Shown here one piece after another: positions 2,068 to 47,313 of a DNA stretch of 64,000 bases (within the stretch, counting starts at the first letter, position 1; every line of letters starts with the position of its first letter). The notes under the pieces were generated by a model. The model did no database searches. It was not told where the DNA came from and saw only the letters and a list, made by a program, of their open reading frames with translations. The translations under genes and the position numbers were made by a program. This DNA comes from a virus: the IMG/VR virus record IMGVR_UViG_3300020429_000529, positions 32,001 to 96,000 of that record, one strand, 5' to 3'.

Positions 2068-2346
2068 ATGAACTGGTACTCAAATCTTAGAAAGACCGCT
2101 CAGTTTGGCGGCGAAGAAGTCGTCGATGATGGTATCTCTATTGATTCGCGTCCTCGTCGATATCGGGGATCGATCATCTTTGAGGTACGAGTTCCTGACG
2201 GCCAAGACCAATCGATCAACAACGAAAGAGCCAGAGAAGCCGCTGAGGATCTGTTGAGCAGACTTCAGGGTCATGTGGGCGACGAGGTTCTGTTTGTTGA
2301 TGAAAACTCGCTGACGGACATCAGCGGTCCCGGTCTGCCTGGCTAA
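2068..2346 (+). CDS. Small protein with N-terminal MNWY...KTAQ tag (putative internal virion protein)
   Basis: GGAGA RBS then MNWYSNLRKTAQFGG. Confidence 0.7.
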   Translation: MNWYSNLRKTAQFGGEEVVDDGISIDSRPRRYRGSIIFEVRVPDGQDQSINNERAREAAEDLLSRLQGHVGDEVLFVDENSLTDISGPGLPG

Positions 2347-3044
2347 CGATTCAGAACAATCGTAGCCTCTTCATCAGTTCGGATAACCTGCGCCTTGGGG
2401 TCGCATTCCTTGGCGAATGTCCAAATGCTTTGATCTGAGAACTCGTGAGCCCTGGCGAAGAACTCGTCATTGGGATTGTTGTTGATTGGGACGATTGCAA
2501 TGATTCGTCCTCCTTCATTGAGTCTTTGATAGCATTCGAGTACGAACCCGTATGGGCAGAAAACGTATTCGAGAGTTTCATATAGAACGATGTTGTCGAA
2601 CCGATGGTTTTTGGGATACTTCTGAAGCGTAGTGCGTTTGAAGTAGGGCTTTTCTTCCCAATATGCTTCGTAGACCATATCGTTGTCAATGCCGTAGGCT
2701 TCGACGCCGTTCTCTCGAAGCTTCTCTACCGACTTGCCGCTTTCGCAGTTGACATCGAGTACCGTTTTGCCGGTTAGATGAGGAGTAGCAAGCTCGATCC
2801 GATGATTGCAACGGATGGTTTCTTCTTGGAAATGAATGCCGGTAAGAGCGTCTTGGAGTCGAAGGTTCTTGAGCTTGTAGAGCTTGTTGTCGTATCTCTT
2901 GCGGATATCTTGTAGACCTCTCTGGTCTGCGGCGCTAAAGATATGACCGCACTTCTGACAGACGAAGTACGAGTAGAAGTGCATGCCGATGTCGAATGTG
3001 TTTTTGTGTCCGCAGATGAAGCACGGAGAAGTGTCGGTTTTCAT
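2343..3044 (-). CDS. Class I SAM-dependent methyltransferase-like protein with N-terminal Zn ribbon
   Basis: CxxC...CxxC; VLDVNCESG (degenerate motif I); FDNIVLYETLEY; LNEGGRIIAIVP. Confidence 0.7.
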   Translation of the reverse strand: MKTDTSPCFICGHKNTFDIGMHFYSYFVCQKCGHIFSAADQRGLQDIRKRYDNKLYKLKNLRLQDALTGIHFQEETIRCNHRIELATPHLTGKTVLDVNCESGKSVEKLRENGVEAYGIDNDMVYEAYWEEKPYFKRTTLQKYPKNHRFDNIVLYETLEYVFCPYGFVLECYQRLNEGGRIIAIVPINNNPNDEFFARAHEFSDQSIWTFAKECDPKAQVIRTDEEATIVLNR

Positions 3045-3051
3045 ACTGGTT

Positions 3052-3078
3052 GTATCGGCTACGAGAGACGGATAGCTT
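3052..3078 (-). promoter_or_regulatory. Phage promoter motif, leaderless arrangement
   Basis: AAGC-N15-GCCGATAC-N7-ATG(3044). Confidence 0.6.
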
Positions 3079-3670
3079 GATCGATGATGTCGTCAAGAAT
3101 GGTCTCTGAAGCGTACCAACCGACAGGTCCGCCAGTAATGAAATCCTGAACGTATTCGTTGTAGGCGTTTCGCCATTTGCTTCGGTCATCATTTGATGCG
3201 CGGCAAAGTCTTTTGCGAGTAAGGCCCGTTGCTTCTTTGGCATGAGCTTCCGCTTCTTTGCGCAGGTCAGCCCATTCGGAGACGGTTTCGGTAATCGGTC
3301 CCCAGTGCAGAAGCCGTTCATCTTGGGAAATGGCCCATTGATCGATATTGAACTGGCTGAACTTGAGGTATTTCTTGGTGAAGGAGACCGCTCGCGGGTT
3401 GAACCCCTCGTCTTCAAGCTCGTTGGAAGGGATCTCAAACGCTCCGAACGGCGTTTTATCGATCGCGAGAAGGTCGCCCGAGTTGAAGTTGCACCTGACC
3501 AGAAGGTCAACGTCTTTGATGTTGAACTTAGGATTGGATATGTTCTCAGCGAACGATCCCCAGACGTAAACGCCTTCTACGTCTGGCAGCGCAGCGATTT
3601 CCGCCGCTGCTTGGCGGATGTATTCGTCGGCGTCCCCGACAGTCGGCATGGCTCTTTCGTACCAGCGCAT
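3059..3670 (-). CDS. Pol-beta superfamily (minimal) nucleotidyltransferase with N-terminal WY tag
   Basis: VEGVYVWGSFA...KDVDLLV (GS...DxD signature); starts MRWYERA. Confidence 0.8.
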   Translation of the reverse strand: MRWYERAMPTVGDADEYIRQAAAEIAALPDVEGVYVWGSFAENISNPKFNIKDVDLLVRCNFNSGDLLAIDKTPFGAFEIPSNELEDEGFNPRAVSFTKKYLKFSQFNIDQWAISQDERLLHWGPITETVSEWADLRKEAEAHAKEATGLTRKRLCRASNDDRSKWRNAYNEYVQDFITGGPVGWYASETILDDIIDQAIRLS

Positions 3671-3679
3671 GAATCAGAG

Positions 3680-3705
3680 TATGCGAAAATCGCAGTCTCT
3701 TCCTT
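3680..3705 (-). promoter_or_regulatory. Phage promoter motif (variant)
   Basis: AAGG-N14-TTCGCATA, 9 nt before ATG 3670, no SD. Confidence 0.45.
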
Positions 3706-3798
3706 CTTTCGTCACCGGATCGTTTTCTTCTGCACTCGTTTGAGGCGTAGCAAGTGCAGCGATTTTGCGGTAGAATGGTTCTGCTGTTCGAAGACAGG

Positions 3799-4290
3799 AT
3801 GATCTTGAGCATGGAAACGAACGATCGAAAACAAGAATACCTGATTACGCTTGCCGAGGAGATTTCCAACGGCATTATGCGAGCGGAACAAGTCATTTGG
3901 TCGCTTCTGTCTGTCAAGGCGGAGCTATTCTCGGGGCACATGGAAACGTTCGTCCCGATACCGGATTCGTTCAAGCGAGCATTCGATCAAGTCATCAGGG
4001 ACAACAAAATCGCCAAACGAAGACTTGAAGTTTTCCTGCGGCAAGTCGAATACGCTGACGCCAGCGATATGAACGAGACGGAGTTTGACCTCATCAAGCT
4101 GCAGAGCCTTGAGGTGGGGCACCTGCTCCGTTTGGGCGCAGAGAACGCCGCTGAGCTTCAACCGATGGTCGGGCAGATCAGAAGAAGCTACGAGGCCGCT
4201 TGCAGTGGACCTCTGGGACTGGGAAGCGATTGGGTCGATACACCCTTGGAAGACGATTCTGAGGATGACCCATGGCAGCAACCAACGTAG
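3799..4290 (+). CDS. Hypothetical helical protein
   Basis: ORF overlapping thyX start; start 3799 or 3811. Confidence 0.6.
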   Translation: MILSMETNDRKQEYLITLAEEISNGIMRAEQVIWSLLSVKAELFSGHMETFVPIPDSFKRAFDQVIRDNKIAKRRLEVFLRQVEYADASDMNETEFDLIKLQSLEVGHLLRLGAENAAELQPMVGQIRRSYEAACSGPLGLGSDWVDTPLEDDSEDDPWQQPT

Positions 4291-7775: not shown

Positions 7776-7802
7776 TATTCGGCTTTGGGGCCGAGCTTCC
7801 TT
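7776..7802 (-). promoter_or_regulatory. Phage promoter motif, leaderless arrangement
   Basis: AAGG-N15-GCCGAATA-N7-ATG(7768). Confidence 0.7.
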
Positions 7803-7831
7803 CAACTTTTGTGTCGAAGGACTTTTGATGT

Positions 7832-30081: not shown

Positions 30082-30867
30082 ATGAGATTCATCACAAACC
30101 GTATTCCCACCAACAAGTCGGGTAGTTTTTCCGATCTTGTCGAGAAGGTGGCGTCTGCAAACCGTCAGCAAGTCAAGACGGCATCGGCAGACAAGGATGT
30201 CAAGGCTGCTCAGACAACTGAGGCGGCGAATGACGACAACGAACTGCGTACAGACGTTCACCACGGCGAAGGTTCTGCCAACGATCAGAATGGCGAGCCC
30301 GAAGTTGATGGGGAAAACAAGACTGTCGATCCTGCTGGTCTGAAGGCTGCTTCTACTGAGGATGCGGACGAGGAAGCAAAGACGGCGAGCGACTCTGAAG
30401 AAGAGGAGATCACCGAGGCTGCTGCCGATGCCGATGATTCCGAAGAGGAAGAAGTCACCGAGGCAAGCGCCGAGGGCAAGACTAAGGTTGCGGAGTCTGA
30501 AGGCGATTCTGGTCCTGCAAAGGGCGAGGGCGCTGGAGATAGCAGCGAGGATCTTGAGGGCAAGAACGAAGGCCGTTTCCCTGAGCCAGATCGCGAAAGC
30601 GGCGAGTGCTACACGCAGGAAGCGGAAGAGGACGGCAAGGCTGATGTCGAGTCGAGCGTCAAGGCAGAGGTTCGCGAAGCCCTTGCTGCAGCGAAGCTCG
30701 GTAATGTCACGAAGCTTGCTAACTTGAGCGACGAAGGTCGTAAGCTTGCTCAGTCTACCTTTGAGAAGGTTGCCAACCTGAAGCCCAAGCAGAAGGCATG
30801 GCTGAAGAACTACTACCGCATGGTTTGGCCGGAAGAGTATTCCGACTCGCTTGTTCAGGACAAGTAA
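30082..30867 (+). CDS. Acidic hypothetical protein (scaffold/core-like)
   Basis: AAGGAG RBS; D/E-rich; many K-x-A-[S/Q/E/N] motifs. Confidence 0.75.
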   Translation: MRFITNRIPTNKSGSFSDLVEKVASANRQQVKTASADKDVKAAQTTEAANDDNELRTDVHHGEGSANDQNGEPEVDGENKTVDPAGLKAASTEDADEEAKTASDSEEEEITEAAADADDSEEEEVTEASAEGKTKVAESEGDSGPAKGEGAGDSSEDLEGKNEGRFPEPDRESGECYTQEAEEDGKADVESSVKAEVREALAAAKLGNVTKLANLSDEGRKLAQSTFEKVANLKPKQKAWLKNYYRMVWPEEYSDSLVQDK

Positions 30868-34323: not shown

Positions 34324-36651
34324 ATGGCAATAGACAAGCCGAACAAGCCAATCAAGATGCAGCTACCGTCGAAGGATGCGATGTCCAAAGTAGCGGTTGC
34401 CAAAGGTCACACGGTTCAGAAGACAGGAACGCCGACGCCCGCTTCTTTGCAGAATGCGAGCGGTAACGTTTTTGCGAACGCCCCTCTTGCTCACGGTACT
34501 GTTGTCAACATGCCGCTTACAAAGGCCGCGCAGTCGATTGGCGGCGGCTTGGGCGTTACGGTTACGCAGCCGATGTTCTTCTCGCCTCTGCATACGCCGC
34601 AGAACTGGCAGATTGCATCGAAGCGTCGAGAAGTCTATCAATGGGCAAGGTTCTACTACGAGAACGAGCCAAAGGTTGCAGCGGGTATTGATTTCTACTC
34701 GCAGTTCCCTATCAACGGCTTCAAGCTTGAGTGCAAAAGAAAGACCGTACTCAAGTTCTTTGAGCGACTTGTAGACAAGCTTGATCTTCTGAAGTGGTTG
34801 CGTCTGATTTCTCACGAGCGATTCTTGCTCGGAGATGTCTTCATCTTTACAGAGATCGATTCTCCTGACAGCAGAGGCGAAACTGGTTTGCCTCCTGATG
34901 AGTGGACGCATGCCGATGGTACGATCAAGCGTATCATTGTCATGAACCCCGACTGGATGGAGGTTTCGACAAACATCCTTGCTGATGATCCTGAGATCGT
35001 CATGCTTCCTGACGAGGAACTCAAGAAGGTCGTCATGCAGAAGCAGCCTCGTCATATCTATGACAGGTTGCCCGATGAGGTCAAGGCTCTCGTAGCCGCT
35101 GGCCGTCCTATCCGTTTGTCCTCGACTGTCACAAGCCACTTGAAGCATGGCGGCGCTCCGTATGGAACGTATGGCGATTCAATTCTTCGCCGTATGTTTA
35201 CGACGCTTGCTTACAAGACCAAGCTGATGACAGCGAACTGGATTGTTGCAGAGCGACTCATTCTTCCTGTTCGAGTTGTCAAGATTGGCGAGAAGGACCG
35301 TCCTGCTTCTGAAGATGATATCGCTGATATCAGCCAGCAGCTTGCGGCGGTTGCTAACGATCCAAACCTCACAATCGTTACGCACCATGCGTTCGATTAT
35401 GAATGGTATGGAGCAACTGGCAAGATCCATAACATCAATGCAGAGCTTGAGTATGTTGGCAAGGAGATCCTTGACGGCCTCATGCTCAACCAGGCTCTTC
35501 TGAATGGCGAGGGAACAAGTTACGCCAGCGGACAGATTGGCGCTGAGGCGCTCATCATGCGTCTTGAGACATGGCGAAGCGAACTCAAGGAATGGGTCGA
35601 GAAGCGAATCTTCTTGCCCATTGCCAAGATGCAGGGGTTTATTGACGAAGAGGAGTCGAAGCTTGCGGGCGAGACTGTCTTCTTGTATCCTCGCATCAAG
35701 TGGGAGGACATGCGGCTGCGGGATAACAGCAACCTGCAGCAGATGTTCATTCAGTTGAATCAGACAGGCAAGATCTCTGATCGCACGCTTCTTGAGCAGT
35801 TCGATCTCAACTACGACCAAGAGGTTGAGAGAATCCGAGAAGAGCAAGTTCAGGCTATGCAGGATGGTCAGCTTATGCCTGGTATGGGAGATCCCATGGC
35901 GGGCGGAGGCGGCGCTCCGATGCCTGGCGGCATGGGAGGCATGGGCGCTCCCGGAGGAGGAGCAGCAGGCGGCCCTCCCGGCGCAGACCCGATGGGCGGA
36001 GGCATGGACCCGATGGGCGATGGTATGGGCGGAGGCGCTCCGATGGCTCCTCCCGGCGCAGCCCCTCCTGGCGGAGGCATGGCAGCCGCAGCGGATGCCG
36101 CATCGCCCGGCAAGGTCTACAAGAAGGGTAAAGCTCCGAAGTCCGAAGGCCCAAGCGAAGAAGAGTTGGCGGCGCAGCAGCCCGTTACGATTCAGCTAAC
36201 TGGACCAGAGGCTAAGCTGTTCCGAGCAATGAGAGACATGAGGTTGCCTCATGCTGTTTACGCTCAGTTCAAACAGTATCGTCCTGGTAATCAGCAGCCG
36301 TATGTTATGGACTTTGCCATTCCTGAGCTTCGACTCGATATCGAGGCAGACGGAGATAAATGGCATACGGAGTTTGATGATAAGCAGAGAGATCAGCGAA
36401 GAGATATGGACCTTGCCCATATGGGATGGTCTGTTCTGAGGTTCTCGGAATCTGCTATCAACGAGAACATCGATCAGGTTGAGCAGATATTGCAGCAGAA
36501 CATCTCTGAACTTGTCAAAGAACACAAAAACCTGAAGAAGTCGGCTTCGGTAGGAGAAGTTGAACTTCAGATAGAAGTAAAGACAAGCGAAAGCCTTAGC
36601 GATGATATCGCAAATGGTTACACAAGCATCTCGGTGGTCAAACCAAAATGA
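34324..36651 (+). CDS. Portal protein with G/M/P-rich linker and C-terminal DUF559 endonuclease domain
   Basis: Position between terminase and protease/MCP; ~500-aa helical core (YGDSILRRMF, ILPVRVVKIG); C-terminal YVMDFAIP..IEADGDKWH..DQRRD..GWSVLRF. Confidence 0.75.
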   Translation: MAIDKPNKPIKMQLPSKDAMSKVAVAKGHTVQKTGTPTPASLQNASGNVFANAPLAHGTVVNMPLTKAAQSIGGGLGVTVTQPMFFSPLHTPQNWQIASKRREVYQWARFYYENEPKVAAGIDFYSQFPINGFKLECKRKTVLKFFERLVDKLDLLKWLRLISHERFLLGDVFIFTEIDSPDSRGETGLPPDEWTHADGTIKRIIVMNPDWMEVSTNILADDPEIVMLPDEELKKVVMQKQPRHIYDRLPDEVKALVAAGRPIRLSSTVTSHLKHGGAPYGTYGDSILRRMFTTLAYKTKLMTANWIVAERLILPVRVVKIGEKDRPASEDDIADISQQLAAVANDPNLTIVTHHAFDYEWYGATGKIHNINAELEYVGKEILDGLMLNQALLNGEGTSYASGQIGAEALIMRLETWRSELKEWVEKRIFLPIAKMQGFIDEEESKLAGETVFLYPRIKWEDMRLRDNSNLQQMFIQLNQTGKISDRTLLEQFDLNYDQEVERIREEQVQAMQDGQLMPGMGDPMAGGGGAPMPGGMGGMGAPGGGAAGGPPGADPMGGGMDPMGDGMGGGAPMAPPGAAPPGGGMAAAADAASPGKVYKKGKAPKSEGPSEEELAAQQPVTIQLTGPEAKLFRAMRDMRLPHAVYAQFKQYRPGNQQPYVMDFAIPELRLDIEADGDKWHTEFDDKQRDQRRDMDLAHMGWSVLRFSESAINENIDQVEQILQQNISELVKEHKNLKKSASVGEVELQIEVKTSESLSDDIANGYTSISVVKPK

Positions 36652-37088
36652 GAGTATTCGACCTCAATAAGTATGCTCGCCACGGCGGACGAACTCCCAT
36701 CAAGGAGCGAGGTATCAAGTGGGAAGAGGCATACGAAGAGAGGTCTGCTCCTCTAAAGAAGAGATTTGACAAGCAGATTGGCCCTGGCGCTTACTACCGC
36801 TGGGAAGGTCATGATGTCACAACGAACTCTGACTACTACGTTGTTGTTGGTCCCTCGATTCAGAAGAATGTAGGCAAGATGTTCTTTGCGGGAGTTAAGA
36901 AGCTTCCGCCTGAAGCAGAGCGCAAAGAGAAGAAGTCGTATTCGCCGTATGGCGAGTATTTTCCGTCTATGAAGGCGGCTCTTGCGTATGCGAATGATAA
37001 GTGGGGAACGCCAGTGCCAAAGGGCGCTCCTGAATACAAGAAAGACCAGTTGGCACACGTTGATATCCCGGAGCATGTCAAGGCATGA
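36648..37088 (+). CDS. Hypothetical protein
   Basis: ATGA overlap; MRVFDLNKYA tag. Confidence 0.75.
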   Translation: MRVFDLNKYARHGGRTPIKERGIKWEEAYEERSAPLKKRFDKQIGPGAYYRWEGHDVTTNSDYYVVVGPSIQKNVGKMFFAGVKKLPPEAERKEKKSYSPYGEYFPSMKAALAYANDKWGTPVPKGAPEYKKDQLAHVDIPEHVKA

Positions 37089-38806
37089 GCAAGAACTTCT
37101 ACAGTTCGTTTCGGGGCCTAAGTCGCACGGCTGATATGGCGCTGAACCCTGGCGAGGTCGATTACGGCAATCGTCAAGGTCTTCGTTGGCATCGTTTTTC
37201 GCCTGGTCAGTTTCAGGGCGAGAATAGCCTTCCTGAAGAGGCTTCGGGCACTATCTCGAACATGATGAACAGGTTCAAGGAAGAGTTCTCTCAGTTTAGG
37301 ATGAATCCTCAGACCGAGCAAGTCATCACAAAGTTTCGCGGAATGATCTTTGCGATCTACGCTCACGATACTGCATTGAGCGGTCAGGGCGCAGACGAGA
37401 TTCCGCCCGAGCTTCAAGAGACAGCAGAGTTTGTTCGACAGAACCATCTCCGCATGATCCCCAACGGTACAGAAAAGTCGATCGGTACAGACTTCTGGAT
37501 TACTCACAACGCTCATGCATATGCGGATTTGTTCCCGAACGACGTTCAGAAGGTGCAGAAATCAAGCCCCGAATCGATTGTCCCTTTGAAGAGCGAAGGA
37601 CAGCGATCGAAGGCCGAGCAAGCAGATATTCCTCACGGAGATCTTGTTGTTGCGCCTCGCGGTCGAGGATACGGACCTTTCATCGATTGGGATGGCAATC
37701 TTGAGCCGATCCTTCGAGGTCAGGCTGCGACGAACACAGAGAAGTTTTTCGTTGACAACCTTCGTATGGGGGCAAGTCTTGTTTCGATGCCTCAGGGACC
37801 GAGGGGTCCGATCGTTTCTGCTCGTCGTATCAATCTTCGAGCGGGAGATCGAGACAATGTTCGTCTTCGAGATGAGCAAGCTCGCCGACTTGAGATCTAC
37901 AACGACGCTATTCGCAATGAGACAGCTTACAGACTCTTCAATGATGAGGAGGGAGCCATTTATGCGAAGAACGTCTCTACCGAAGAAGAGTTCTATCTGA
38001 CCGAACAGCAGGTTCAAAGTATTATTCGACCTGAACAACTCAATAGGCCGTTCTTTGTTAGACCTGCAAAGGGTCAGCCTATCTCAAGCATCAGAGAGGG
38101 TCAGTGGCGAGTCACTGATGAACTGAAGAACCATCTTGCAACCACTGACGCTCCTGTTGGTTTTCAGGCGCTTACTGCTCTTCGAGAGCATCTCGACAAC
38201 TCATACAGAGAGCAGCATGGCGTAGCGATGCATGCCCCGTATGAGGGCTTCAAGATCATCATGATCGGCCCGTCGTTTTCGAACCCAAAGAACTTGGGCG
38301 AAGGACAGACGCAGAGTTTGCCTGGTTTTGCAACTCATTTGACTGCAACAGATCCAGAGGTACAGCCCGAAGGTCCGATTGATGTCAACAGGGGTATCAA
38401 CTGGGTTGTTATCTCGAATGAGATCCGTCCGAACCAACAGGACCGCATGAACCCATGGACAAGAGTCCAGGGTAAGAGCGAGCGTTCTGCTTCTTTTGCA
38501 ACGCCTCAAGAGGCAGTCCAGTATGTCATGAGTCAGTATGTAGATGCTGACGTTCCTGGTAATCAGTCTGTCCTTTCCGCTACTGCAGAATCGCTTGTAG
38601 AGGCCGATCGGGCATTGAATGCTGCTTTGAAGATGCCAGCGGGAGGATTGCCTGCGGCACCGCCTCCGCAGCAAATCTCAGCCCCCACTGTAGAAAATCC
38701 TGCAGCTACGCCGATACCAGAAGTGACGCAGCCTCAGCCGGTCGATTCAACGAATCGAATGGCTTCGAGTACCCTTCGGGCGACTCTTCGACGACTGAAA
38801 CGATAA
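37085..38806 (+). CDS. Hypothetical head-associated protein
   Basis: ATGA overlap; MSKNFY...SRTA tag. Confidence 0.75.
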   Translation: MSKNFYSSFRGLSRTADMALNPGEVDYGNRQGLRWHRFSPGQFQGENSLPEEASGTISNMMNRFKEEFSQFRMNPQTEQVITKFRGMIFAIYAHDTALSGQGADEIPPELQETAEFVRQNHLRMIPNGTEKSIGTDFWITHNAHAYADLFPNDVQKVQKSSPESIVPLKSEGQRSKAEQADIPHGDLVVAPRGRGYGPFIDWDGNLEPILRGQAATNTEKFFVDNLRMGASLVSMPQGPRGPIVSARRINLRAGDRDNVRLRDEQARRLEIYNDAIRNETAYRLFNDEEGAIYAKNVSTEEEFYLTEQQVQSIIRPEQLNRPFFVRPAKGQPISSIREGQWRVTDELKNHLATTDAPVGFQALTALREHLDNSYREQHGVAMHAPYEGFKIIMIGPSFSNPKNLGEGQTQSLPGFATHLTATDPEVQPEGPIDVNRGINWVVISNEIRPNQQDRMNPWTRVQGKSERSASFATPQEAVQYVMSQYVDADVPGNQSVLSATAESLVEADRALNAALKMPAGGLPAAPPPQQISAPTVENPAATPIPEVTQPQPVDSTNRMASSTLRATLRRLKR

Positions 38807-38882: not shown

Positions 38883-41800
38883 ATGAGTTCCAAAGGCTTT
38901 ATCAAATGGGCGTCAGGTCCAATGCCGGCAGAAGTTGTCCATCTGCCAAAGACAGACGACTGGAAGTATCTAAACACATCTCGTGTTAAGGTTGCCGGTA
39001 TCGATAAAACCAAGGATACTGATCTTGGCGGCTTTGATCTGAGCGCCGCCGTTGACGAGCATCCCAACCATCTTTTTGTCAAGGCATTCGCTATCAAGGC
39101 TGATGAGGTCAATGATAACGGCGATGCCTTTTCTGCTGATGAGCTAAAGAAGGCTGCGGAAACATTCATTGATTGTCCCGTCTTTGTAAACCATCAGAAC
39201 GATGATGTTGAGAAGGCAAGAGGCAAGGTTGTTCACGCATGGTGGGACAACGATCAGCAGGGTATCTATGTCATCAACAGAGTTGACAAGGAAGCTTACC
39301 CTCAGTTGGCCCGAGGCATTGAAGAAGGTTACATCGTCGGAACTTCAATGGGCGCTCAGGTAGGCCATTCGGTCTGCTCTGTCTGTCACAACAAGGCTCA
39401 TGTTGCTGACGAGTTCTGCTCTCACATCAAGGAGCGTAAGGGCAAGAAGTATAGCGGCGCGCATCAGTGCAACTATCACAAGAGCCCTGGCGCTCCCAAG
39501 GACGATTGTCCTGCTTGCGGCTGCAAGAAGGGGTCCAATAAGGAGTTGAACCATAAGGAAGCTCAGATTTTTGAGTGGAACTATGATATCAACTTCATTG
39601 AAGACAGCTTTGTTGTCAACCCTGCTTGTCATGACTGCCTGGTTTGTGATGTTCTAAACGTTCCCGAAATCGAGAAGGTTGCGAACGTTAATATCGATAA
39701 GCTCCGCAAGGTTGCTTCTGCGATTCAGACCGCTGTTGATGGCGGCAAGATTGCGAAGAAGGCAGGAACGAAAGAGATTACCGCTCTCAATGAGGCTATG
39801 ACCCTCATGGAGGGCGTTACCCGTTCGATGATGGCTCAGAAGCAGCTTGTGTCCATGGAGTACGTCAGCGACATTGTTGAGCAGTTGGCGAAGCTTCAGG
39901 AAACAACCGATGAGTTGGTAGAGATGGGTTACAGTCAACTCCCATCGCCGCCTGAGTCGGAAGTTATTTTTGGTAATCAGCAGGCTGCATCTCCTGTTGA
40001 GGGCGGAGCAACTCAGGTTTCCGATCCGAACATGATGCAGTCGCAGCAGCCCCAGATGTCGGCAGGCTCGCCGTCAGGTACTACAAGTTCTCCGGTAGGT
40101 GATGGGTTGGCAACGATCACAAAGCCAACTTTTTCAAAGTCTGAGAAGGAATTTTTGACACAAGCCGAGAACATCAAGGAGAGTATCCGCAGGATAGCGA
40201 GCGGTTTCAGCGCCGACAGGGGGTTGATCCATTCAAGGAGAGAATCTGTGTTGAAGTCGGAGCATACTTACGCTGCGGAGAATGGCGACCTGAAAATCGT
40301 CATTGCTCATACTGAAGATGGCGAATGTCACGTTGCCGAGTTCAAGGGAACGCAGCTTCGTAAGCTGACAAATGCCGATGAGTTTGGTAATGAGATGCGA
40401 ATGCTCATTGCTAACGATCCCCAGAATGCTGCACAGAGGATTCTAACACAAACGTCTGAGTCCAAGGAGTCGAGAGAGGCTATGGCAAACTCAAATAACA
40501 AGAAGACCGCTGCTGGTCGCGGAGTTACGGAAGAGCAGACTGAGATGATTACTCAGAAGCAGCTTGATGCTGCTGATCTTCCGGAATACACAAAGCGTCA
40601 GGAAGACAGCTACGAAACGATCACCGAAGGCGATGAGCAGATTGGCGGCACCGAGCGTTACAACGATGTAACGACTGCAAGCCCTCAGACTCGCCGAGGT
40701 TCTTACGATGTCATCACTCAGGAGCAGCTAAACGCTATTACTGAGGGGCATCTTTCTCGTTGGAAGGACTTCCCTGAAGTCATCACCGAGAAGCAATGGG
40801 ACGAGATGAGCCGTACCGTCGATGCGATCCTTCCTGAGGATTGGACCGAGGAAATCACTCAGGCTCAGCTTCTCAACCTCCGAGACAACCACCGTTGGGA
40901 AGATCCCAACGTCATCACTCAGGGTCAGCTTGATAATCAAGGCAGCACGATGCCTGATATCGGCGACACCGCACGTTGGAAGGCCGCTGGCCGAGATCCT
41001 GCCTCGCTTGTCAAGGCAGCCGCCAAGTCGGTTTCCGACGCCATCGCTAACTACGGTCTCTCTCCGCAGGATGTTGCCAACGCAGTTGCGTCGGTTACGA
41101 CATCTCCTCATGCGCAGATGAAGGCTTCGTATCTGACCCTTATCAACGCTGTCCCATCGAAGATCGCTGGCCGTCAGGCTGAGCGAGATCGTCGCAGCTA
41201 CTTCGAGAGAGTCGCAAACCGTCGCGCAGATGGTTTCAGCGCCGTCGATGGTTTGCTTGCATCCATGGCCGACAACGTTGGTTACTTGAAGTCCAACAAC
41301 CTGATTGATGCGGTACGTCGCATTGTTCAGGACAAGACAGCTTTTGCGAAGGCCGAGAAGAACGCCCGTACTGCTATCAAGCAGGCTCAGTCGGCGGAAG
41401 CTCGGCCCGTTTCGTATGACGATGGCCTCGCTGCGGCTCTTGCCGAGTTTGTCAACGAGGACGGTCTCACCAAGGTTTGCGGAGCCCTCTCTGAGATCTC
41501 TGTCAAGCCTTCTAAGGGCGGCGACTTTGTTGCTGCGGCCTTCAAGTTCGCTTCTGAGCATGAGGAAATCGAGGATGAAGTCATCCTTGCTTCTGTTGAC
41601 ATCGATGAAGAGGCGGGCACCTTCGAGGTTGTTCTGAAGGACGTTTCTGCTGCTACCGAAGAGGAAGTTGAGCGATTCAAGCAGGCTCAGGTTGCTAACT
41701 TCGGAGACAAGAAGGCAGAGCCGTTTGGTAAGAAGGACAAGAACGAGAAGGGCAAGGAAGACGCAGACGGCAAGGAAGATGATGCCGATGCTGAGGGTTG

Positions 41801-44723
41801 CGGAACCATGGCGGGTTCGAAGGGCGGTCAGAAGACTGCTCGTTCCGAGCGTCGTCAGCAGATGCTCCGCGAGGCTCAGTTGATGGGCGGTCAGATGCCA
41901 ACCGATATGGGCGCTGGCGGCGGAGGCGGAGCATCGCTTCCCGCTCCTCCTGCTGAGGGCGGCGCTCCTGTTGAGTCGTTCGATGGAGGCCTTGATGACA
42001 TGGGCGAGGAAGGATTCGATGAGGATCTTATGCCCAAGCCGCCCGGCGCTATCTGCCCTGTTTGCGGTTCCGATGACGTTGACGTTGTTGACGGCAGAGG
42101 CAAGTGCAACAACTGCGGAGCCGAGTGGGACATCGAAATCATGATTAACGTCCGCAAGTGGCCTGGTATTACTGACCAGGGCGAAGAGGACGACACTCTT
42201 GGCGGCGAAGCCGGCGAAGAGGGCGAAGGTTTTGCTCTCGATGAGGACAACCCCATCGAGGAGAGTCTGCCTGTTGCCGCAACCACTCGCTTGACCGATT
42301 TCTCGCTCAAGAAGATGGCAGAGGCCAACATCAGCCTTGGTTCTGTAAGTCCTTACAGCGGCACAACCGAAACTTACCGAGTCGGCAAGACCGCCGATGG
42401 CGCTACGGAGTTCCACTGCTTCAGCAGCGGTCAGAGGTACTTGGTAAGAGCAGCCCAGAAGGGCGACAAGGTTTACGCTCGTTGGGAATGGACGCCTCGC
42501 TTCAGCGAGCCATGCCAGAACTGCAGCCGAGTCCGCAAGACCTTTGCGAAGGCCCTTGCTAACCGCAACCTCACAATGGAGAAGTTCCAGTCGCTCTCTG
42601 CACGAGATCGCGGCAAGTTGATCCTTGCGATGAACAACGAGGGAACTTTCAAGACTGTCAAGACCGCATCGAAGAACGAGTCGATCTCCAAGACCTTCAA
42701 GGAAGTTTACGCTTTCGGTCCTGGCGACAAGTTCCCTGTTGAGTCTTGCCGAGAGAAGCTTGCTCGTCGCTTCGGCGAAGATGCGATTGCTTTGAGCGGC
42801 CCATGCCACGGCAGCAACCTTGTTGACTGCGTATGCAAGAGCCTCAAGTCGGCAGGAGTATACAGCAACGGTCTTGCTGTCAAGATTGCTCAGATTTGGG
42901 CGGATCGAGACGGCTGCATCGAATGCTTCGAGGACAACATCCGCTCTGGCTTCACGGCTGAGCAGTCGTCTCTCATCTGCGAGAGCATGAAGCAGGTCTT
43001 TGCTCAGCCCATCGAGATGTTTGCTGATGAGCTTGAGAATGGCTTCGACGATGGAGGAAACGACGGAGGCTTCGATGATGGCGGCGATGAGGTCGGCTTC
43101 TTCGAAGAGGATGTCAACCCGTTCGGCGGAGACGAGGCTGCTGGCTTCGTAACGATCGAGCTTCCGATTGATGTTCTTGAGCAGGTTGATGAGGCTCTTG
43201 ATGTTGCTTTGGGCGAAGATCCTGCTCTTGAGGGACATCACGACGAGGGAATCCTTCCCGAGGGCGACGTAGAGGTTGAAGTCGGCGACGAGGTTGCCGA
43301 TGGCCTTGAGGACGCAACCGAGAATGCCCTTGACGCAGCGGTTGATGTTGCTGATGAAGTCGTTGACAGTCTCGAAGGCGAGGTTGAGGACGACGGAGAC
43401 GGCGATGATGACGGCGGCGACGACAACGGCGGGGGCAACCCGTTCGGCGGCGATGAGTCTCACGACGATGAGGGGTCCGATCCTCTTATGGCAGAAAATC
43501 ACACAGGAAAGAAGGAATCTTATGCAGAAACTTCAAATGAAGATGACAGCGAGGATTCCGAAGAGGAAGTCACAATGCGAGAGGCTGAGGCTTTGGCCGA
43601 CAACCTGAAGCGCGGTAAGATTTCTCAGACTGGTCGAATCAGTCTTGATCTTGACGGAGTGCTTGCGGCGCTCGGCAAGAACGCCCAGTCGAATCTTCAC
43701 CAGACGAACGTCCAGGACGACGCTGACATTCAGCCGACTTCCGGTAAGAACAAGTCTCAGATGGGTCACGAGGACAAGTTGACCCTTGCTGATCCAGATG
43801 CCCCTTCCGCAGGAGCGGGCGCAACGATGGGCAAGGAGTCGGGCGACCTCGTACCTGAGAACAACACAAACGTCCCCAACGGCGGCGGCGAGATGGGTCA
43901 TGAGGCCGATCAAGGCTACACCGCTGAGAAGGGCGATCAGCACACCGGCGGCGAAGACGGCGCTGGTACTTCGAAGGCAGCTTCGAACGGACACAAGAAC
44001 TACCGTACCGCTGAAAGAGTCGGCGACCTTGCGGAGAGCTTGATCCGAGTTGCCGAAGAGAAGAAGCTCGCTCCTCCTGCTCCGCATGAGGATGATGAGG
44101 ACATTCAGCCTGTTCAGGAGAACAAGGATCACTCGCACTCGGGCAACGAGATCAAGCCCCGAGAGGGAGATGACGGTCCTGATGCTCCCGAGCAGGGTAA
44201 TGCAAGCTTCATGGGTCATGAGGAAGAGTCCATTGGCGACGTTCCGAAGAGCCCAGAGCATCACCCCGAGTTCCCCGCTGGCGGCGGACAGAACTCGAAG
44301 TATGACAGAAATGAACGCTACGCCCCTGAGAAGCAGGAGCGTGACAAAGGCACGGTCATCGCACGTCGCGATGAGGAGTCCCTTGCGGCCCGAAAGAAGG
44401 CTGCTCAAGTCCTTGCAGGTAAGATGGTCGCAAGCGGCCTGATTCAGCCTGCACAGATCGTCGATAAGATCGCTCAGCTTGAGCGTTATCAGATCGAGCA
44501 GATCGCGGATCTTGAGAAGTCGATCTTTGGCGGAGCTTCGAGGAAAGGGCTCGACGCCGTAGCGAAGGGAGCGCAAACCCCTCTCGTCGTCAATGCTTCG
44601 GCGAATGAGCGAGAACCGGCAGGAGAGCTAAGGACAAAGCTGCAGAGCTTGTTCACGCTCGACCGTCGTAACCAACTCGCTGATTCTGATGACGATGCGC
44701 AACTCAGGAATGGATACAGGTAA
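38883..44723 (+). CDS. Prohead protease/scaffold polyprotein (1946 aa)
   Basis: N-terminal NDNGDAF..EL..PVFVNH..ARG..GTSMG..EDSFVVNPA resembles HK97-type prohead proteases; Zn-finger clusters; acidic disordered C-half; directly upstream of decoration and MCP genes. Confidence 0.75.
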   Translation: MSSKGFIKWASGPMPAEVVHLPKTDDWKYLNTSRVKVAGIDKTKDTDLGGFDLSAAVDEHPNHLFVKAFAIKADEVNDNGDAFSADELKKAAETFIDCPVFVNHQNDDVEKARGKVVHAWWDNDQQGIYVINRVDKEAYPQLARGIEEGYIVGTSMGAQVGHSVCSVCHNKAHVADEFCSHIKERKGKKYSGAHQCNYHKSPGAPKDDCPACGCKKGSNKELNHKEAQIFEWNYDINFIEDSFVVNPACHDCLVCDVLNVPEIEKVANVNIDKLRKVASAIQTAVDGGKIAKKAGTKEITALNEAMTLMEGVTRSMMAQKQLVSMEYVSDIVEQLAKLQETTDELVEMGYSQLPSPPESEVIFGNQQAASPVEGGATQVSDPNMMQSQQPQMSAGSPSGTTSSPVGDGLATITKPTFSKSEKEFLTQAENIKESIRRIASGFSADRGLIHSRRESVLKSEHTYAAENGDLKIVIAHTEDGECHVAEFKGTQLRKLTNADEFGNEMRMLIANDPQNAAQRILTQTSESKESREAMANSNNKKTAAGRGVTEEQTEMITQKQLDAADLPEYTKRQEDSYETITEGDEQIGGTERYNDVTTASPQTRRGSYDVITQEQLNAITEGHLSRWKDFPEVITEKQWDEMSRTVDAILPEDWTEEITQAQLLNLRDNHRWEDPNVITQGQLDNQGSTMPDIGDTARWKAAGRDPASLVKAAAKSVSDAIANYGLSPQDVANAVASVTTSPHAQMKASYLTLINAVPSKIAGRQAERDRRSYFERVANRRADGFSAVDGLLASMADNVGYLKSNNLIDAVRRIVQDKTAFAKAEKNARTAIKQAQSAEARPVSYDDGLAAALAEFVNEDGLTKVCGALSEISVKPSKGGDFVAAAFKFASEHEEIEDEVILASVDIDEEAGTFEVVLKDVSAATEEEVERFKQAQVANFGDKKAEPFGKKDKNEKGKEDADGKEDDADAEGCGTMAGSKGGQKTARSERRQQMLREAQLMGGQMPTDMGAGGGGGASLPAPPAEGGAPVESFDGGLDDMGEEGFDEDLMPKPPGAICPVCGSDDVDVVDGRGKCNNCGAEWDIEIMINVRKWPGITDQGEEDDTLGGEAGEEGEGFALDEDNPIEESLPVAATTRLTDFSLKKMAEANISLGSVSPYSGTTETYRVGKTADGATEFHCFSSGQRYLVRAAQKGDKVYARWEWTPRFSEPCQNCSRVRKTFAKALANRNLTMEKFQSLSARDRGKLILAMNNEGTFKTVKTASKNESISKTFKEVYAFGPGDKFPVESCREKLARRFGEDAIALSGPCHGSNLVDCVCKSLKSAGVYSNGLAVKIAQIWADRDGCIECFEDNIRSGFTAEQSSLICESMKQVFAQPIEMFADELENGFDDGGNDGGFDDGGDEVGFFEEDVNPFGGDEAAGFVTIELPIDVLEQVDEALDVALGEDPALEGHHDEGILPEGDVEVEVGDEVADGLEDATENALDAAVDVADEVVDSLEGEVEDDGDGDDDGGDDNGGGNPFGGDESHDDEGSDPLMAENHTGKKESYAETSNEDDSEDSEEEVTMREAEALADNLKRGKISQTGRISLDLDGVLAALGKNAQSNLHQTNVQDDADIQPTSGKNKSQMGHEDKLTLADPDAPSAGAGATMGKESGDLVPENNTNVPNGGGEMGHEADQGYTAEKGDQHTGGEDGAGTSKAASNGHKNYRTAERVGDLAESLIRVAEEKKLAPPAPHEDDEDIQPVQENKDHSHSGNEIKPREGDDGPDAPEQGNASFMGHEEESIGDVPKSPEHHPEFPAGGGQNSKYDRNERYAPEKQERDKGTVIARRDEESLAARKKAAQVLAGKMVASGLIQPAQIVDKIAQLERYQIEQIADLEKSIFGGASRKGLDAVAKGAQTPLVVNASANEREPAGELRTKLQSLFTLDRRNQLADSDDDAQLRNGYR
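40540..40935 (+). repeat. Six IT[Q/E]xQ[L/W] peptide repeats
   Basis: MITQKQL, TITEGDEQI, VITQEQL, VITEKQW, EITQAQL, VITQGQL; boundaries approximate. Confidence 0.7.
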
Positions 44724-44749
44724 AGAATACCTAACGAGGAGATAGAACA

Positions 44750-45363: not shown

Positions 45364-46257
45364 ATGTCTTTCACCAAGAATCTCTCTGATGACCAGAAGG
45401 AAGAGGTCATCGCACAGGCTCTTGAGACTGACGAGGGACGCACCGCTCTTGCTCAGGCTATGGTCGAGCCCATCCGTCGTTCTCTTGAGTACCAGGCAGT
45501 TGGTCGTAAGCTGCTCATGGTTGACGAGCTTCCCCAGGGCGCGCTTGCCCGATACGAGCGCGACGTTGCCGCTATTGCGCACGTCGTCTCCCGTCGAGGC
45601 GCTGTTCCTGACCAGATCCAGGAAGGCGAGGAAATCCTCGTTCCGACCTGGGAGATCGCGGCTAACCCCACGATCCGTCTCTCCGAGATCAAGGCGCGTC
45701 GCTTCTACATCGTAGACCGCGCGCAGATCAAGGCCAAGGAAGCCATCCAGAAGGAGGAAGATTCGCAGATTTTCAACGCGCTCATCGCAGCCGTTGACAA
45801 CCGCGCAGCTAACCCTCTCTTCGCTGACGATGCTCAGATCGTCCAGGACGGTTCCTCGCTCAGCACGACTTCGCTCAACGCAGCGTTCCGTCTGATCGAG
45901 CGTCACGACCTGGTTGCGACCAAGATCGTTATGCACGCCAACCGCTACGCAGATGTCCGTACCTTCGGTAAGGACTTCTACGACGAGGCCACCACTCGTG
46001 AGATCCTCACGACTGGTCTCTACGGTCACCTCTGGACCGCCGACATCCACGTTTCGTCGCGCATGCCGCCCGAGACTGTTCTTGTCGTCGCTTCGCCAGA
46101 CACCGTTGGCGCGTTCCCGATCCGTCAGGACATCACCGTCCTGCCCGCAGACGACCCCAAGAAGCTCCGCCTCGGATGGGTCATCTACGAGGAAGTCGGC
46201 ATCGCCATCATCAACGACTACGCAATCTCGAAGATCGAGGTTGCCGCAACCAGCTAA
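45364..46257 (+). CDS. Major capsid protein (HK97 fold)
   Basis: Strong AGGAGGT RBS, strongly biased codons, head-module position, strong terminator; GRKLLMVDELPQGA, VPTWEIAANP. Confidence 0.85.
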   Translation: MSFTKNLSDDQKEEVIAQALETDEGRTALAQAMVEPIRRSLEYQAVGRKLLMVDELPQGALARYERDVAAIAHVVSRRGAVPDQIQEGEEILVPTWEIAANPTIRLSEIKARRFYIVDRAQIKAKEAIQKEEDSQIFNALIAAVDNRAANPLFADDAQIVQDGSSLSTTSLNAAFRLIERHDLVATKIVMHANRYADVRTFGKDFYDEATTREILTTGLYGHLWTADIHVSSRMPPETVLVVASPDTVGAFPIRQDITVLPADDPKKLRLGWVIYEEVGIAIINDYAISKIEVAATS

Positions 46258-46285
46258 TCTGATTAGCTGACCAAGAGTCTCTCTC

Positions 46286-46313
46286 ACGGCCCCTTTCGAG
46301 GGGCCGTTTTTTT
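46286..46313 (+). terminator. Rho-independent terminator
   Basis: ACGGCCCCT-TTCG-AGGGGCCGT followed by T6. Confidence 0.92.
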
Positions 46314-46332
46314 ATGCGCTCAGACAAATCTT

Positions 46333-46349
46333 GCCGATATAGAGTAAGG
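46333..46349 (+). promoter_or_regulatory. GCCGAT-type -10 element
   Basis: GCCGATATAGAGTAAG after the terminator; near-copy at 47385. Confidence 0.5.
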
Positions 46350-46425
46350 CGGGTATTGCGTGAAAGCTTACAGTGATAAGCCAGCAATGCCGAAGAACCT
46401 GAAGAGCATTTGATAGGAGTCCAAA

Positions 46426-46863
46426 ATGCAGATCGAAGTCACACTTGCAGAACTTAACAGCGTAGTCGAAGGTCTCAACAAGCTCGTTGAGACGCCCATG
46501 CCAGCCAAGTACGCCTTTCGCTTTGGCAAAGTAGCCAAGCAGCTTCAGGGCGAACTACAAGAGTTGCAGCAGCAACGCAACGAGCTTTACAAGAAGTACG
46601 GCGAGCAGCAGGAGAATGGATCGCTCACGATTCCGCCCGCCAAGGTCAACGACTTCTACGGCGAGGTTGAGGAGCTTCTCAAGGAGAGCGTCAACGTCAA
46701 CTTCGAGCCCATGCCGCTGTCCGCCATTGGCGATAGCGAGGTTTCGATTGCAACGATGGCCTGGCTCGATAAGTTCTTCGTTGATGACCTGAATCCTGAT
46801 GAGCCTGCGTCGGAGGTTTCCGAAGAGTCTCAGGAGGAGGAGGCTGTAGCGGCGGGCGCGTAA
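46426..46863 (+). CDS. Hypothetical protein (possible assembly chaperone)
   Basis: AGGAG RBS; helical LNKL..PAKYAF..QRNELYKKYGE. Confidence 0.7.
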   Translation: MQIEVTLAELNSVVEGLNKLVETPMPAKYAFRFGKVAKQLQGELQELQQQRNELYKKYGEQQENGSLTIPPAKVNDFYGEVEELLKESVNVNFEPMPLSAIGDSEVSIATMAWLDKFFVDDLNPDEPASEVSEESQEEEAVAAGA

Positions 46864-46884
46864 TACGATGTCAGGAGGCATCTC

Positions 46885-47313
46885 ATGCGCAGTATTAAAA
46901 CAGCAGGCTATAGCGTTTCTCTACCGATTGACAAGAAAGACTATCCGCCGATCAAGGGTATGGAAGGTCCAATGAGGATGCCGAATGGCAAAGTCCTCTA
47001 TTACGACCCGAAGCAGAAGCAATACTATGATCGCAAAACTGACATGTTTGTGCCTGTAGAGGACGCAATGGCAACGCCGCCTCCGAGGGATGAGAGCTTT
47101 TTCCCGCACAACACTCGAACTGCTGCCAAGAAGTCTCCATGCTGGGACGGCTATGAGCAGGTCGGCATGAAGGACAAGAACGGCAGAGAAGTTCCTAACT
47201 GCGTACCGAAGAACAAAGAAAGCGCCAAGCACGATAAGGGTTCAGAGATCTACAAAGAGGGCGACGAAGAACGTAAAGAGTCTTCAACGAAGACTCGTTT
47301 GTTCAAGCTTTAG
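46885..47313 (+). CDS. Small two-module protein (putative internal virion protein)
   Basis: MRSIKTAG; GMEGP..GKVLYYDPK module; RTAA; CWDGYEQVGMK..VPNCVP module. Confidence 0.7.
   Translation: MRSIKTAGYSVSLPIDKKDYPPIKGMEGPMRMPNGKVLYYDPKQKQYYDRKTDMFVPVEDAMATPPPRDESFFPHNTRTAAKKSPCWDGYEQVGMKDKNGREVPNCVPKNKESAKHDKGSEIYKEGDEERKESSTKTRLFKL

Follow-up and report, generated by a model that had tools for sequence, protein, structure and literature searches.

Otherwise unrelated proteins of a marine megaphage carry a common short peptide label. On the evidence of their sequences, these labels are real and selected at the peptide level. Their closing motif is the one with which the head protease-scaffold is filled, so that tagged proteins are probably loaded into the phage head and trimmed there. 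The window analyzed here comprises 64,000 nt (positions 32,001 to 96,000) of the 498,568-bp circular genome of this ocean virus, a relative of phage G (IMG/VR record IMGVR_UViG_3300020429_000529); coordinates refer to the window unless a genome position is given. The portal, the prohead protease and a complete tailed-phage head module are encoded, and the major capsid protein (45364..46257, + strand), which has neither a leader nor motif enrichment, is 52% identical to phage G gp27. All leaders listed in the original prediction were found at their positions, and the genes for ThyX, the NrdJ-type reductase, dUTPase and the fibres lack a leader, as had been proposed; the same holds for the sigma factor. 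A literature search found no paper on the MNWY label.

The NWY label and its genes

The sequence M(x)NWY starts at least 13 unrelated ORFs, and three further copies are located at or near C-termini. A six-frame search with M.{0,2}[NRQ]WY resulted in 14 matches versus one in the reversed-genome control. For the pattern combining NWY with a hydrophobic and a basic residue the numbers were 14 and 0, and ATGAAYTGGTAY was found eight times in the genome and not in the control. In an unbiased test over 7853 tripeptides, NWY was the most N-terminally enriched one, with 6 of 10 occurrences within the first 14 residues (p 2.3e-6). As BLASTP among the bodies of 22 tagged proteins detected no similarity at E<=0.01, the claim that one peptide code is common to unrelated proteins holds. 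A [KR]-x-A follows NWY within at most eight residues in 9 of the 16 in-frame copies, for which about 0.8 was estimated by chance, and a clean K-x-A is absent from some labels (e.g., genome positions 7223, 305130, and 397997). The bodies of the NWY proteins contain two putative cut marks of this type with 3.8 expected, a depletion that is not significant.

Three genes with a WY label are located outside the head cluster of the window. The first encodes a 92-aa protein without a family match (2068..2346, + strand), the label of which (2068-2103) ends in K-T-A-Q. The other two, both on the - strand, encode a 203-aa nucleotidyltransferase-like protein (3059..3670) with an M-R-W-Y label (3647-3670) and a 280-aa phage lysozyme (6926..7768), in which an M-Q-N-W-Y label (7739-7768) is followed by a hydrophobic segment. 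Besides the lysozyme and the nucleotidyltransferase, the tagged enzymes whose genes lie far from those for the head comprise a pyrophosphatase, an ArdC-like protein and a CCA-adding/HD enzyme. In 45 orthologues of the nucleotidyltransferase-like protein the pattern x-W-Y...[A/S]-[M/I]-P is kept, and W3, Y4 and P9 show little or no variation in 35 orthologues with identities down to 36%. The model of this protein shows the label as a short helix of its own, predicted with lower confidence and set off by the invariant proline.

The same promoter motif had been proposed for all three WY genes and was indeed found upstream of each: AAGGGA-N16-CGAAGT (2012..2038, + strand, 29 nt upstream of the start at 2068), GAAGGA-N15-CGCATA (3680..3706, - strand, 9 nt upstream of the ATG) and GAAGGA-N16-CGAATA (7776..7803, - strand, 7 nt upstream of the ATG), the latter two in a leaderless layout. 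This promoter-like motif is a general leaderless class of the phage and also precedes the ribonucleotide reductase gene and many untagged genes, so that its common occurrence adds little to the case. As the class is shared with the reductase and absent from the region upstream of the capsid gene, co-expression of the tagged genes with head assembly does not follow from it.

The leaderless layout also invites a reading at the level of nucleic acids, in which the common start ATG-AAC-TGG-TA would belong to leaderless mRNAs from sigma-28-like promoters, for instance as a translation enhancer or initial transcribed sequence, or would mark a joint at which gene cassettes recombine. Five of the approximately 15 promoter-coupled leaderless starts bear a label, and the Asn codon is AAC in 13 of 13 NWY copies, compared with 66% genome-wide. 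Tagged genes stand in tandem, and one junction holds two NWY-coding stretches 23 nt apart. The Tyr codon, however, varies between TAT and TAC, all later codons vary too, and an AT-rich orthologue encodes NWY as AAT-TGG-TAT. Ordinary ribosome sites or translational coupling are found for other tagged genes, the offset between Met and NWY varies by 0-2 residues, and C-terminal and internal copies exist. We consider such a signal extremely unlikely; the control counts, the codon variation and the conservation of W3, Y4 and P9 at low identity argue for selection of the peptide.

The K-x-A motif in head proteins and their leaders

Head-cluster proteins are headed or divided by two further labels, the FN-type [F/Y]-N-[L/Y]-x-K-x-A and the minimal M-x-x-I-K-x-A; NWY, FN-type and minimal labels all terminate in K-x-A-[S/Q/G]. 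All window genes described in the following are located on the + strand. The 305-aa protein at 24014..24931 has a Y-N-H...K-K-A leader (24014-24049) and the 202-aa protein at 24931..25539 an F-N-Y...K-M-A-Q leader (24931-24966), and a third copy of this label class was found at genome position 18504. In a 138-aa orphan (27027..27443), the minimal leader M-E-L-I-K-Q-A-Q is combined with a C-terminal NWY label (27411-27440), nine residues ahead of which there is a K-V-A-S site. Internal FN/FD-type labels are present in a 400-aa head protein (32403..33605) at 32655-32678, 33084-33107, and 33549-33575. Its orthologues contain 70 copies of [FY]NL.K.A, and in the head loci of 56 relatives this pattern occurs 91 times versus twice in the control. 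Orthologues justify the grouping of NWY with FN-type leaders.

In total, an N-terminal K-x-A was found in 10 of the 21 head-cluster proteins versus 43 of the 553 proteins elsewhere (p 3e-6), and shuffled sequences confirmed the enrichment that had been suspected. The motif [KR]xA[QSGN] occurs 23 times in the 1946-aa protein described below (5.5 expected) and eight times in a 261-aa acidic head-cluster protein (30082..30867; 1.0 expected), in both cases with none of 2000 shuffles as high; the latter is likely a scaffold or core protein. Six K/R-x-A-[S/Q/G] sites are present in a 413-aa head-cluster protein (28755..29996; 1.8 in shuffles), where K-T-A-Q-Y-V-G is conserved in orthologues, and the 32403 and 27027 proteins have five and three sites (1.1 and 0.5 in shuffles, respectively). 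The claimed recurrence of the motif could thus be verified for the 28755, 30082 and 1946-aa proteins, but not for the Mu-type portal with a C-terminal DUF559 nuclease domain (34324..36651), the count of which is not significantly enriched (4 vs. 1.7 in shuffles). In the orthologues of the portal, a K-x-A close to the N-terminus is retained, and T-K-A-A-Q (residue 67) is conserved.

In 79 related phages, leader lengths vary and the K-x-A end directly abuts the conserved body. For the family of a 146-aa protein with an F-D-L-N-K-Y-A leader (36648..37088), 37 of 55 distinct leaders, which have very different lengths, end in [KR]-x-[AS]-[GAS] directly before the R-K-R-I-K-D-R-G-I body. The 16-residue leader of a 573-aa protein (37085..38806) ends in S-R-T-A, followed by D-M-A, and 11 of 12 leaders of its orthologues end in [KR]-x-[AS] directly before D-M-P/A. 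Such junctions are as expected of a processing site and fit cutting after Ala. The leaders proposed at 27027, 36648, 37085, and 46885 are individually not significant and gain weight only via orthologues. The last of these, M-R-S-I-K-T-A-G of a 142-aa protein (46885..47313), belongs to the same class as the shortest leaders of the 36648 family, and few orthologues were found for its own family.

A degradation or timing signal for a host AAA+ protease, by which tagged enzymes would be removed at a set time, is very unlikely. Signals of the ClpXP type are short, basic and N- or C-terminal, and the label is likewise found at both ends, its C-terminal copies ending in basic residues. Yet such a signal would leave unexplained the motif-filled scaffold and the motif at structural leader-body junctions. 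Moreover, ClpP gave no match in the phage genome, and the hosts of this uncultured clade differ while the label is constant across the relatives.

The protease-scaffold fusion

The 38883 gene, which encodes the 1946-aa protein, begins with a prohead protease domain, as expected from the original prediction. A disordered stretch of 45 N-terminal residues (38883..39017), with sites at residues 8 and 36, precedes a prohead serine protease domain of the gp21/assemblin fold (39018..39746), which is followed by a scaffold-like tail of about 1650 residues (39747..44723). The protease domain matches phrog_18299 (PHROG, E 2.7e-9), and the top Foldseek matches are T4 gp21 and herpes proteases. VIA returned Z scores of 9.8 (rmsd 2.5 Å, 114 residues), 9.6, and 9.3 (T4 gp21, 130 residues), with the herpes proteases at 9.6-9.8; its top 36 matches all belong to the gp21/assemblin superfamily. 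H104, H118, S155, and H169, which do not vary among 28 sequences, are candidates for the catalytic Ser and His.

The fusion of protease and scaffold is kept in 184 homologues with lengths of 1.1-2.7 thousand residues. In 120 of 120 homologues the motif is enriched 2.1-6.8 times, and a prior-free search returned K.AS as the commonest enriched gapped pattern. As had been suggested, the second half of the label is identical with the motif so abundant in the head scaffold and protease. Half or more of 45 homologues retain about 11 of the motif columns, several of which stand far above their flanks in conservation, and 37 of the 45 retain site 36. Conserved motif islands are located at residues 292, 888, 996, and 1260. 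The assumption that the sites mark domain borders applies in part, considering the protease domain only: sites 8, 36, and 292 lie in disordered flanks, but 225, 265, and 276 lie within structured elements. The conserved K-K-A-G at residue 292, in the disordered linker directly after the protease domain, is a putative release site at which the protein may cut itself.

The chances are about even that these elements form an Ala-specific address-and-cut system that resembles capsid targeting in T4 and is run by a herpes-like protease-scaffold fusion. As the address, an aromatic element of few residues (N-W-Y, or F/Y-N-L/Y) would directly precede the cut mark and let a protein join the scaffold core within the assembling prohead. 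The cut mark, a hydrophobic residue and K/R-x-A followed by S, Q or G, would be the recognition site of the prohead protease, with the N-terminal domain of the fusion as the cutting enzyme. Proteins with an address and a cut mark, mostly N-terminal and in a few cases C-terminal or internal, would enter the prohead and be trimmed after Ala, while the scaffold tail and other core proteins, which are full of cut marks, would be chopped and cleared during head maturation. The trimmed proteins, among them enzymes with genes remote from the head cluster, would remain in the capsid and be delivered with the DNA.

Alternatively, the two halves of the label may serve different ends: K-x-A would be the prohead protease site in head proteins, and NWY would send the dispersed enzymes to the cell membrane, a replication or assembly site, a phage actin-like filament or a host factor. 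In these enzymes, the K-x-A after NWY would then be incidental or cut by another enzyme, e.g., an S8 subtilase. Basic, aromatic and amphipathic, the helix of the label occurs at either protein end and resembles membrane-targeting or docking helices. The hydrophobic, membrane-type segment directly after the lysozyme label also fits a membrane-anchored lysis enzyme and speaks against a capsid cargo. Two S8 subtilases are encoded, one of which adjoins the head-tail genes; they could process leaders outside the capsid, which counts against the prohead protease as the cutter. The promoter class of the tagged genes, too, is common to genes of nucleotide metabolism. Nevertheless, the conservation of N, W and Y is much stricter than would be needed for a generic membrane helix, FN-type relatives of the label are found inside bona fide head-cluster proteins beside the portal and protease genes, and the address is tied to the scaffold motif in more than half of its copies (see above). 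A split function of this kind is considered unlikely, though it deserves attention.

Comparison with known systems

T4 internal proteins IPI-III and Alt have a capsid-targeting sequence that is removed by gp21, as reported in the work cited by PMC10052503 (Mullaney and Black, 1996). As in T4, unrelated proteins with genes outside the head region have a leader of about ten residues, the terminal motif of which also fills the scaffold core, and the protease fold is the same. The sequences are unrelated: the recurrent motif has Ala where gp21-type sites have Glu at P1, so that the cut would occur after Ala with Lys at P3, compared with L/I-x-E in T4. Furthermore, labels in the megaphage are also C-terminal or internal, and its protease is fused to the scaffold of about 1650 residues. 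We infer that the megaphage code is functionally like the T4 system but belongs to a different sequence family.

In other giant phages, SPN3US gp245 removes propeptides at one motif, which recurs inside the propeptides (PMC10052503), and phiKZ gp175 is cited for the proteolysis of head and ejection proteins (Thomas, 2012, cited in PMC13282480). These phages likewise have one motif on many head and ejected proteins and multiple cuts in propeptides. They differ in the motif (A/S/G-x-E), in propeptides of mostly 111-254 residues, in having no short common address and in belonging to a separate phage lineage.

Protease and scaffold are also fused in the herpes protein pUL26, which cleaves itself after Ala at release and maturation sites (PMC4498786). 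The megaphage protease has the same fold, is N-terminal to the scaffold and is directly followed by a conserved site (residue 292), and its self-cutting would likewise occur after Ala, often before Ser. In contrast to the two or three sites of pUL26, about 20 are present here, with Lys at P3. To our knowledge, herpesviruses have no targeting leader on other proteins.

Encapsulins also dock unrelated enzymes inside an HK97-fold shell via a short N- or C-terminal peptide, but without a protease or a removal step, and their shell is not a DNA-filled virion. Their cargo-loading motifs differ from the labels described here. An encapsulin-type cargo peptide was rejected due to the presence of a prohead protease, a portal and the full tailed-phage head module.

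In cultured phage G, the nearest cultured relative, MNWY is absent. This phage has a label of its own, M-K-R-L-I-K-K-[S/A], on at least eight scattered proteins including a ParB-like nuclease, in 8 of 8 copies directly behind the start codon, and its head proteins bear K-x-A-[S/N/G] sites. The design is parallel, with a leader ending in K-K-[S/A]; in phage G, however, the address half is basic-aliphatic rather than aromatic, and gp19, the protease, is a 300-aa protein of its own without the giant scaffold fusion. Tentatively, and with less than even confidence, phage-G-like megaphages may have a modular code in which an address interchangeable between clades (N-W-Y, F-N-L, K-R-L) is combined with a common K-x-A cut mark, with an Ala-specific, assemblin-type protease-scaffold fusion and with a variable set of enzymes that would be packaged in the capsid and delivered with the DNA. 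The cargo in this modular code would comprise the lysozyme, the nucleotidyltransferase, the pyrophosphatase, the tRNA CCA/HD enzyme, and the ArdC-like and ParB-like proteins. As cultured phage G has a sister label and published virion mass-spectrometry data, the hypothesis can be tested now.

If the address-and-cut system is true, the injected proteome of uncultured giant phages would be readable from sequence alone, with anti-restriction, tRNA-repair and cell-wall enzymes among the candidates in this phage, and very large capsids could be loaded with foreign proteins by means of a ten-residue label. A protease-scaffold fusion cutting after Ala would be a closer counterpart of herpes assemblin than T4 gp21 is, and the herpes-like layout, with a protease-scaffold fusion and Ala at P1, would occur in tailed phages too.

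The NWY label and its genomic distribution

The 498,568-bp IMG/VR record (51.8% G + C), of which the window covers bases 32001-96000, represents a complete circular assembly, as its ends overlap by 77 bp. The nearest cultured relative is the Bacillus/Lysinibacillus phage G, with whose gp27 the major capsid protein (45364-46257 of the window) shares 52% identity. In total, 574 genes were called over the genome, and all N-termini listed in the original prediction were reproduced by these calls. The capsid gene and the gene at 46885 are each followed immediately 3′ by a strong hairpin-plus-T-run terminator (46258-46330 and 47314-47385, respectively). Immediately before the head cluster, there is a gene of 1027 aa (20930-24013, + strand) with an intein that contains a LAGLIDADG domain. 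For most head-cluster and tagged proteins, no family was found in Pfam or PHROGs.

In an unbiased test of 7853 tripeptides, NWY showed the strongest enrichment within the N-terminal 14 residues compared to the remainder of the proteins (6 of 10 occurrences; p 2.3e-6), despite the fact that half of the genes carrying this label, a short N-terminal peptide of the M(x)NWY type, were missed by the gene caller. A six-frame scan of the genome revealed 29 NWY, 10 of which immediately follow a methionine. The pattern M.{0,2}[NRQ]WY was matched 14 times vs. once in the reversed genome; for NWY with a hydrophobic residue and a basic one after it, in that order, the numbers were 14 vs. 0. ATGAAYTGGTAY occurs 8 times vs. 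0 for the backwards pattern. Chance or composition as the source of the label was ruled out by the reversed-genome controls, shuffles and the tripeptide test. The original observation that otherwise unrelated proteins start with similar leaders was confirmed; it now covers three related classes of label and also applies to phage G.

The N-terminal label is present on 13 ORFs, of which three are located in the window (2068, as well as 3670 and 7768 on the minus strand). Three more copies were found at or near the C-termini of the 27027 product, a pyrophosphatase and a CCA-adding/HD enzyme. The bodies of 22 tagged proteins have no detectable mutual similarity. At G000:C1:304319-304346 (minus strand, whole-genome coordinates), the pyrophosphatase gene ends with NWY and the next gene opens with NWY from a TTG overlapping the TGA stop; 23 nt separate the two NWY-coding stretches, which are in different frames, and three tagged genes lie in tandem. 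The 883-aa CCA-adding/poly(A) polymerase and HD enzyme (G000:C1:257275-259926, plus strand) contains M-A-S-N-W-Y at residue 774, 110 residues before its end, which could be an internal label or the internal start of a small tagged product. The C-terminal copy of the 27027 product was also considered as a frameshifted leader of 27433, which starts with M-P-T and thereby resembles the ends of other labels. This was rejected because 27 homologues of 27433 start with M-P-T or M-K-T and carry no label, and because the two lie in different frames.

A signal acting at the nucleic-acid level is an unlikely explanation, since the codons of the tyrosine and of every downstream residue are variable and internal and C-terminal copies exist. 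Among 35 orthologues of a 203-aa nucleotidyltransferase (identity down to 36%), W3 and P9 are invariant and Y4 is nearly so, and in an AT-rich orthologue the label is written AAT-TGG-TAT. Judging from sequence comparison, selection on the label is at the peptide level.

A scan of IMG/VR with a single 14-base codon version of the label resulted mainly in chance matches and unrelated families; no counts were taken from it, and the true relatives retrieved were few (L090 and L106). MNWY has 0 copies in the cultured relatives phage G, Tunturi_5 and LR745208. The literature search yielded no publication mentioning the label, and a 2026 jumbo-phage review contains nothing on propeptides of phage-G-like phages.

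The promoter motif GAAGGR-N15-17-CGAAKA, originally described as common to the three WY genes of the window, was indeed found upstream of all three and ends 7-9 nt before the ATG in two of them, which corresponds to a leaderless layout. A sigma-28-like -10 element, [G/T]CGATA[G/A] (e.g., at 47385-47399 of the window), is placed 7-9 nt ahead of the ATG in numerous genes throughout the genome, many of them untagged, and the full motif is also located upstream of the reductase gene. For this reason, the shared promoter is hardly informative on co-regulation with the head and was dropped as a sign of it, the -10-like element being a general class. The position of this element implies that leaderless mRNAs are probably widespread. 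A sigma factor gene is located at 10104-10928.

The K-x-A mark and the protease-scaffold protein

In 9 of 16 in-frame NWY copies, [KR]-x-A follows within 8 residues. Within residues 2-26, K-x-A was found in 10 of 21 head-cluster proteins vs. 43 of 553 proteins elsewhere (p 3e-6). Such a leader is absent from the RNase T-like exonuclease, the sigma factor and the GT4 glycosyltransferase, as well as from ThyX, the NrdJ-type reductase and the dUTPase, for which its absence had already been noted originally and was confirmed.

The 1946-aa product of 38883 contains 23 copies of the extended motif [KR]xA[QSGN] vs. 5.5 in shuffles, with 0 of 2000 shuffles reaching 23. The 30082 protein has 8 copies vs. 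1.0 expected, and a moderate enrichment was seen for the products of 28755, 32403 and 27027. No enrichment was detected by the shuffle test in the portal, the capsid protein and the decoration-like protein. The predicted recurrence of K-x-A is thus accompanied by enrichment in the 1946-aa protein, 28755 and 30082, but not in the portal. Depletion of the mark in the bodies of cargo proteins was not significant. The portal (34324-36651, plus strand) has a C-terminal DUF559/Vsr-like endonuclease domain (residues 624-724, E 1e-12).

The 1946-aa protein combines a prohead protease domain with a scaffold-like tail. Residues 59-189 match the head maturation protease PHROG (E 2.7e-9), and in an AlphaFold model based on 28 sequences, residues 46-288 are folded while 1-45 and 289-300 are disordered. 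For the modeled protease domain, Foldseek returned T4 gp21 as the best match, followed by herpesvirus proteases. A second structural alignment resulted in Z scores of 9.8 (VZV), 9.6 (pseudorabies pUL26N) and 9.3 (T4 gp21), with the top 36 rows all belonging to this superfamily. H104 and S155 of the domain are invariant.

Metagenomes contain at least 184 homologues, with lengths of 1.1-2.7 thousand residues; in several of them (e.g., P0006, P0027, P0064), the protease domain is interrupted by inteins. The motif is enriched 2.1-6.8 times in 120 of the 120 homologues examined, and among the gapped patterns that a search without prior showed to be enriched, K.AS was the most frequent. In an alignment of 45 homologues, about 11 motif columns are retained by half or more of the sequences, several as islands amid poorly conserved sequence. 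Motif identity is 0.70 vs. 0.27 for the flanks at residue 292, immediately C-terminal of the protease domain, and 0.89 vs. 0.33 at residue 1260, and 44 of the 45 sequences carry the motif at residue 996. Herpesvirus pUL26 is a protease-scaffold fusion with a release and a maturation site, at both of which it cuts itself after alanine (PMC4498786). The layout of the 1946-aa protein matches that of pUL26, and it may cut itself likewise.

Leader-body junctions in relatives

For comparison, 79 loci from relatives were used, each covering 10 kb upstream and 10 kb downstream of the start of the protease gene. The orthologues of 36648 have a common conserved body starting at R-K-R-I-K-D-R-G-I, which is preceded by leaders whose length ranges from about 6 to over 40 residues. 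Among 55 distinct leaders of this family, 37 end with [KR]-x-[AS]-small exactly at the junction. The majority open with M-x(0-3)-[F/Y]-N-L-x-K, and the shortest consist of M-I-K-x-A-A only, the same class as the window leaders at 46885 and 27027. In 11 of 12 orthologues of 37085, the leader ends with [KR]-x-[AS] ahead of D-M-P. Portal orthologues keep K-x-A in a variable N-terminal stretch, with T-K-A-A-Q conserved. In 56 loci, [FY]NL.K.A occurs 91 times vs. 2 in the control, including 20 copies in the 36648 family and 70 in the 32403 family, the latter mainly internal with K-x-A-S in front; the 32403 protein of the window itself contains three internal labels of this type. A leader of variable length that ends with a constant short motif at the start of a conserved body has the look of a propeptide junction, and these junctions provide the strongest, albeit indirect, support for putative cutting at K-x-A.

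The best available reading is an address-and-cut system as originally proposed, with the aromatic half of the label as address and K-x-A-[S/Q/G] as cut mark; that the labelled proteins are in fact cut and loaded has, in our estimate, an even chance of being correct. Alternatively, the label may be a helix for docking or membrane targeting that directs proteins elsewhere; the hydrophobic segment behind the label of the lysozyme speaks for such a helix. This is also favoured by two phage-encoded S8 subtilisin-like proteases, both above the Pfam cut-off (50155-51018, plus strand, of the window; G000:C1:252389-253147, minus strand). The former, absent from the gene calls, contains D, H and S motifs with hardly any propeptide, and has the head cluster on one side and the fibre genes on the other. 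A function as degron is less likely, since it leaves the scaffold motif unexplained and no ClpP is encoded in the phage genome. Reading of the label by a ClpP or M16 peptidase of the phage itself was rejected, neither being present.

Leaders in phage G and Tunturi_5

In phage G (NC_023719.1), all 8 of 8 copies of the leader M-K-R-L-I-K-K-[S/A] come immediately after a start codon that has a ribosome site, and the DNA pattern for K-R-L-[I/V/M]-K-K was found 8 times on the coding strand vs. once in the control. The tagged genes are scattered (gp17, 38, 126, 213, 284, which encodes a ParB-like nuclease, 345, 351 and 610), with the leaders at annotated starts, and variants open gp5, 9, 10, 13, 20, 53 and 56. 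The tagged bodies are unrelated, except for one pair (gp53 and gp610). Furthermore, the head proteins gp4, 7, 11, 14 and 19 contain K-x-A-[S/N/G] sites. Thus, the design of address and cut mark appears to recur with a different address. A BLAST search of the tagged phage G proteins against this genome for an address swap on one cargo gave no matches, and the head proteins matched to phage G were the portal, the protease and the capsid protein only. The virion proteome of phage G has been measured. A 2025 multi-omics paper, which contains no cleavage data, reports many non-structural enzymes in phage G particle preparations.

In the cultured Tunturiibacter phage Tunturi_5 (309 kb), K-x-A is located near the N-termini of the ejection protein gp328, the protease gp331 and gp332. 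Since MNWY is absent from this phage although its head-module proteins carry the mark, the cut mark may predate the NWY address.
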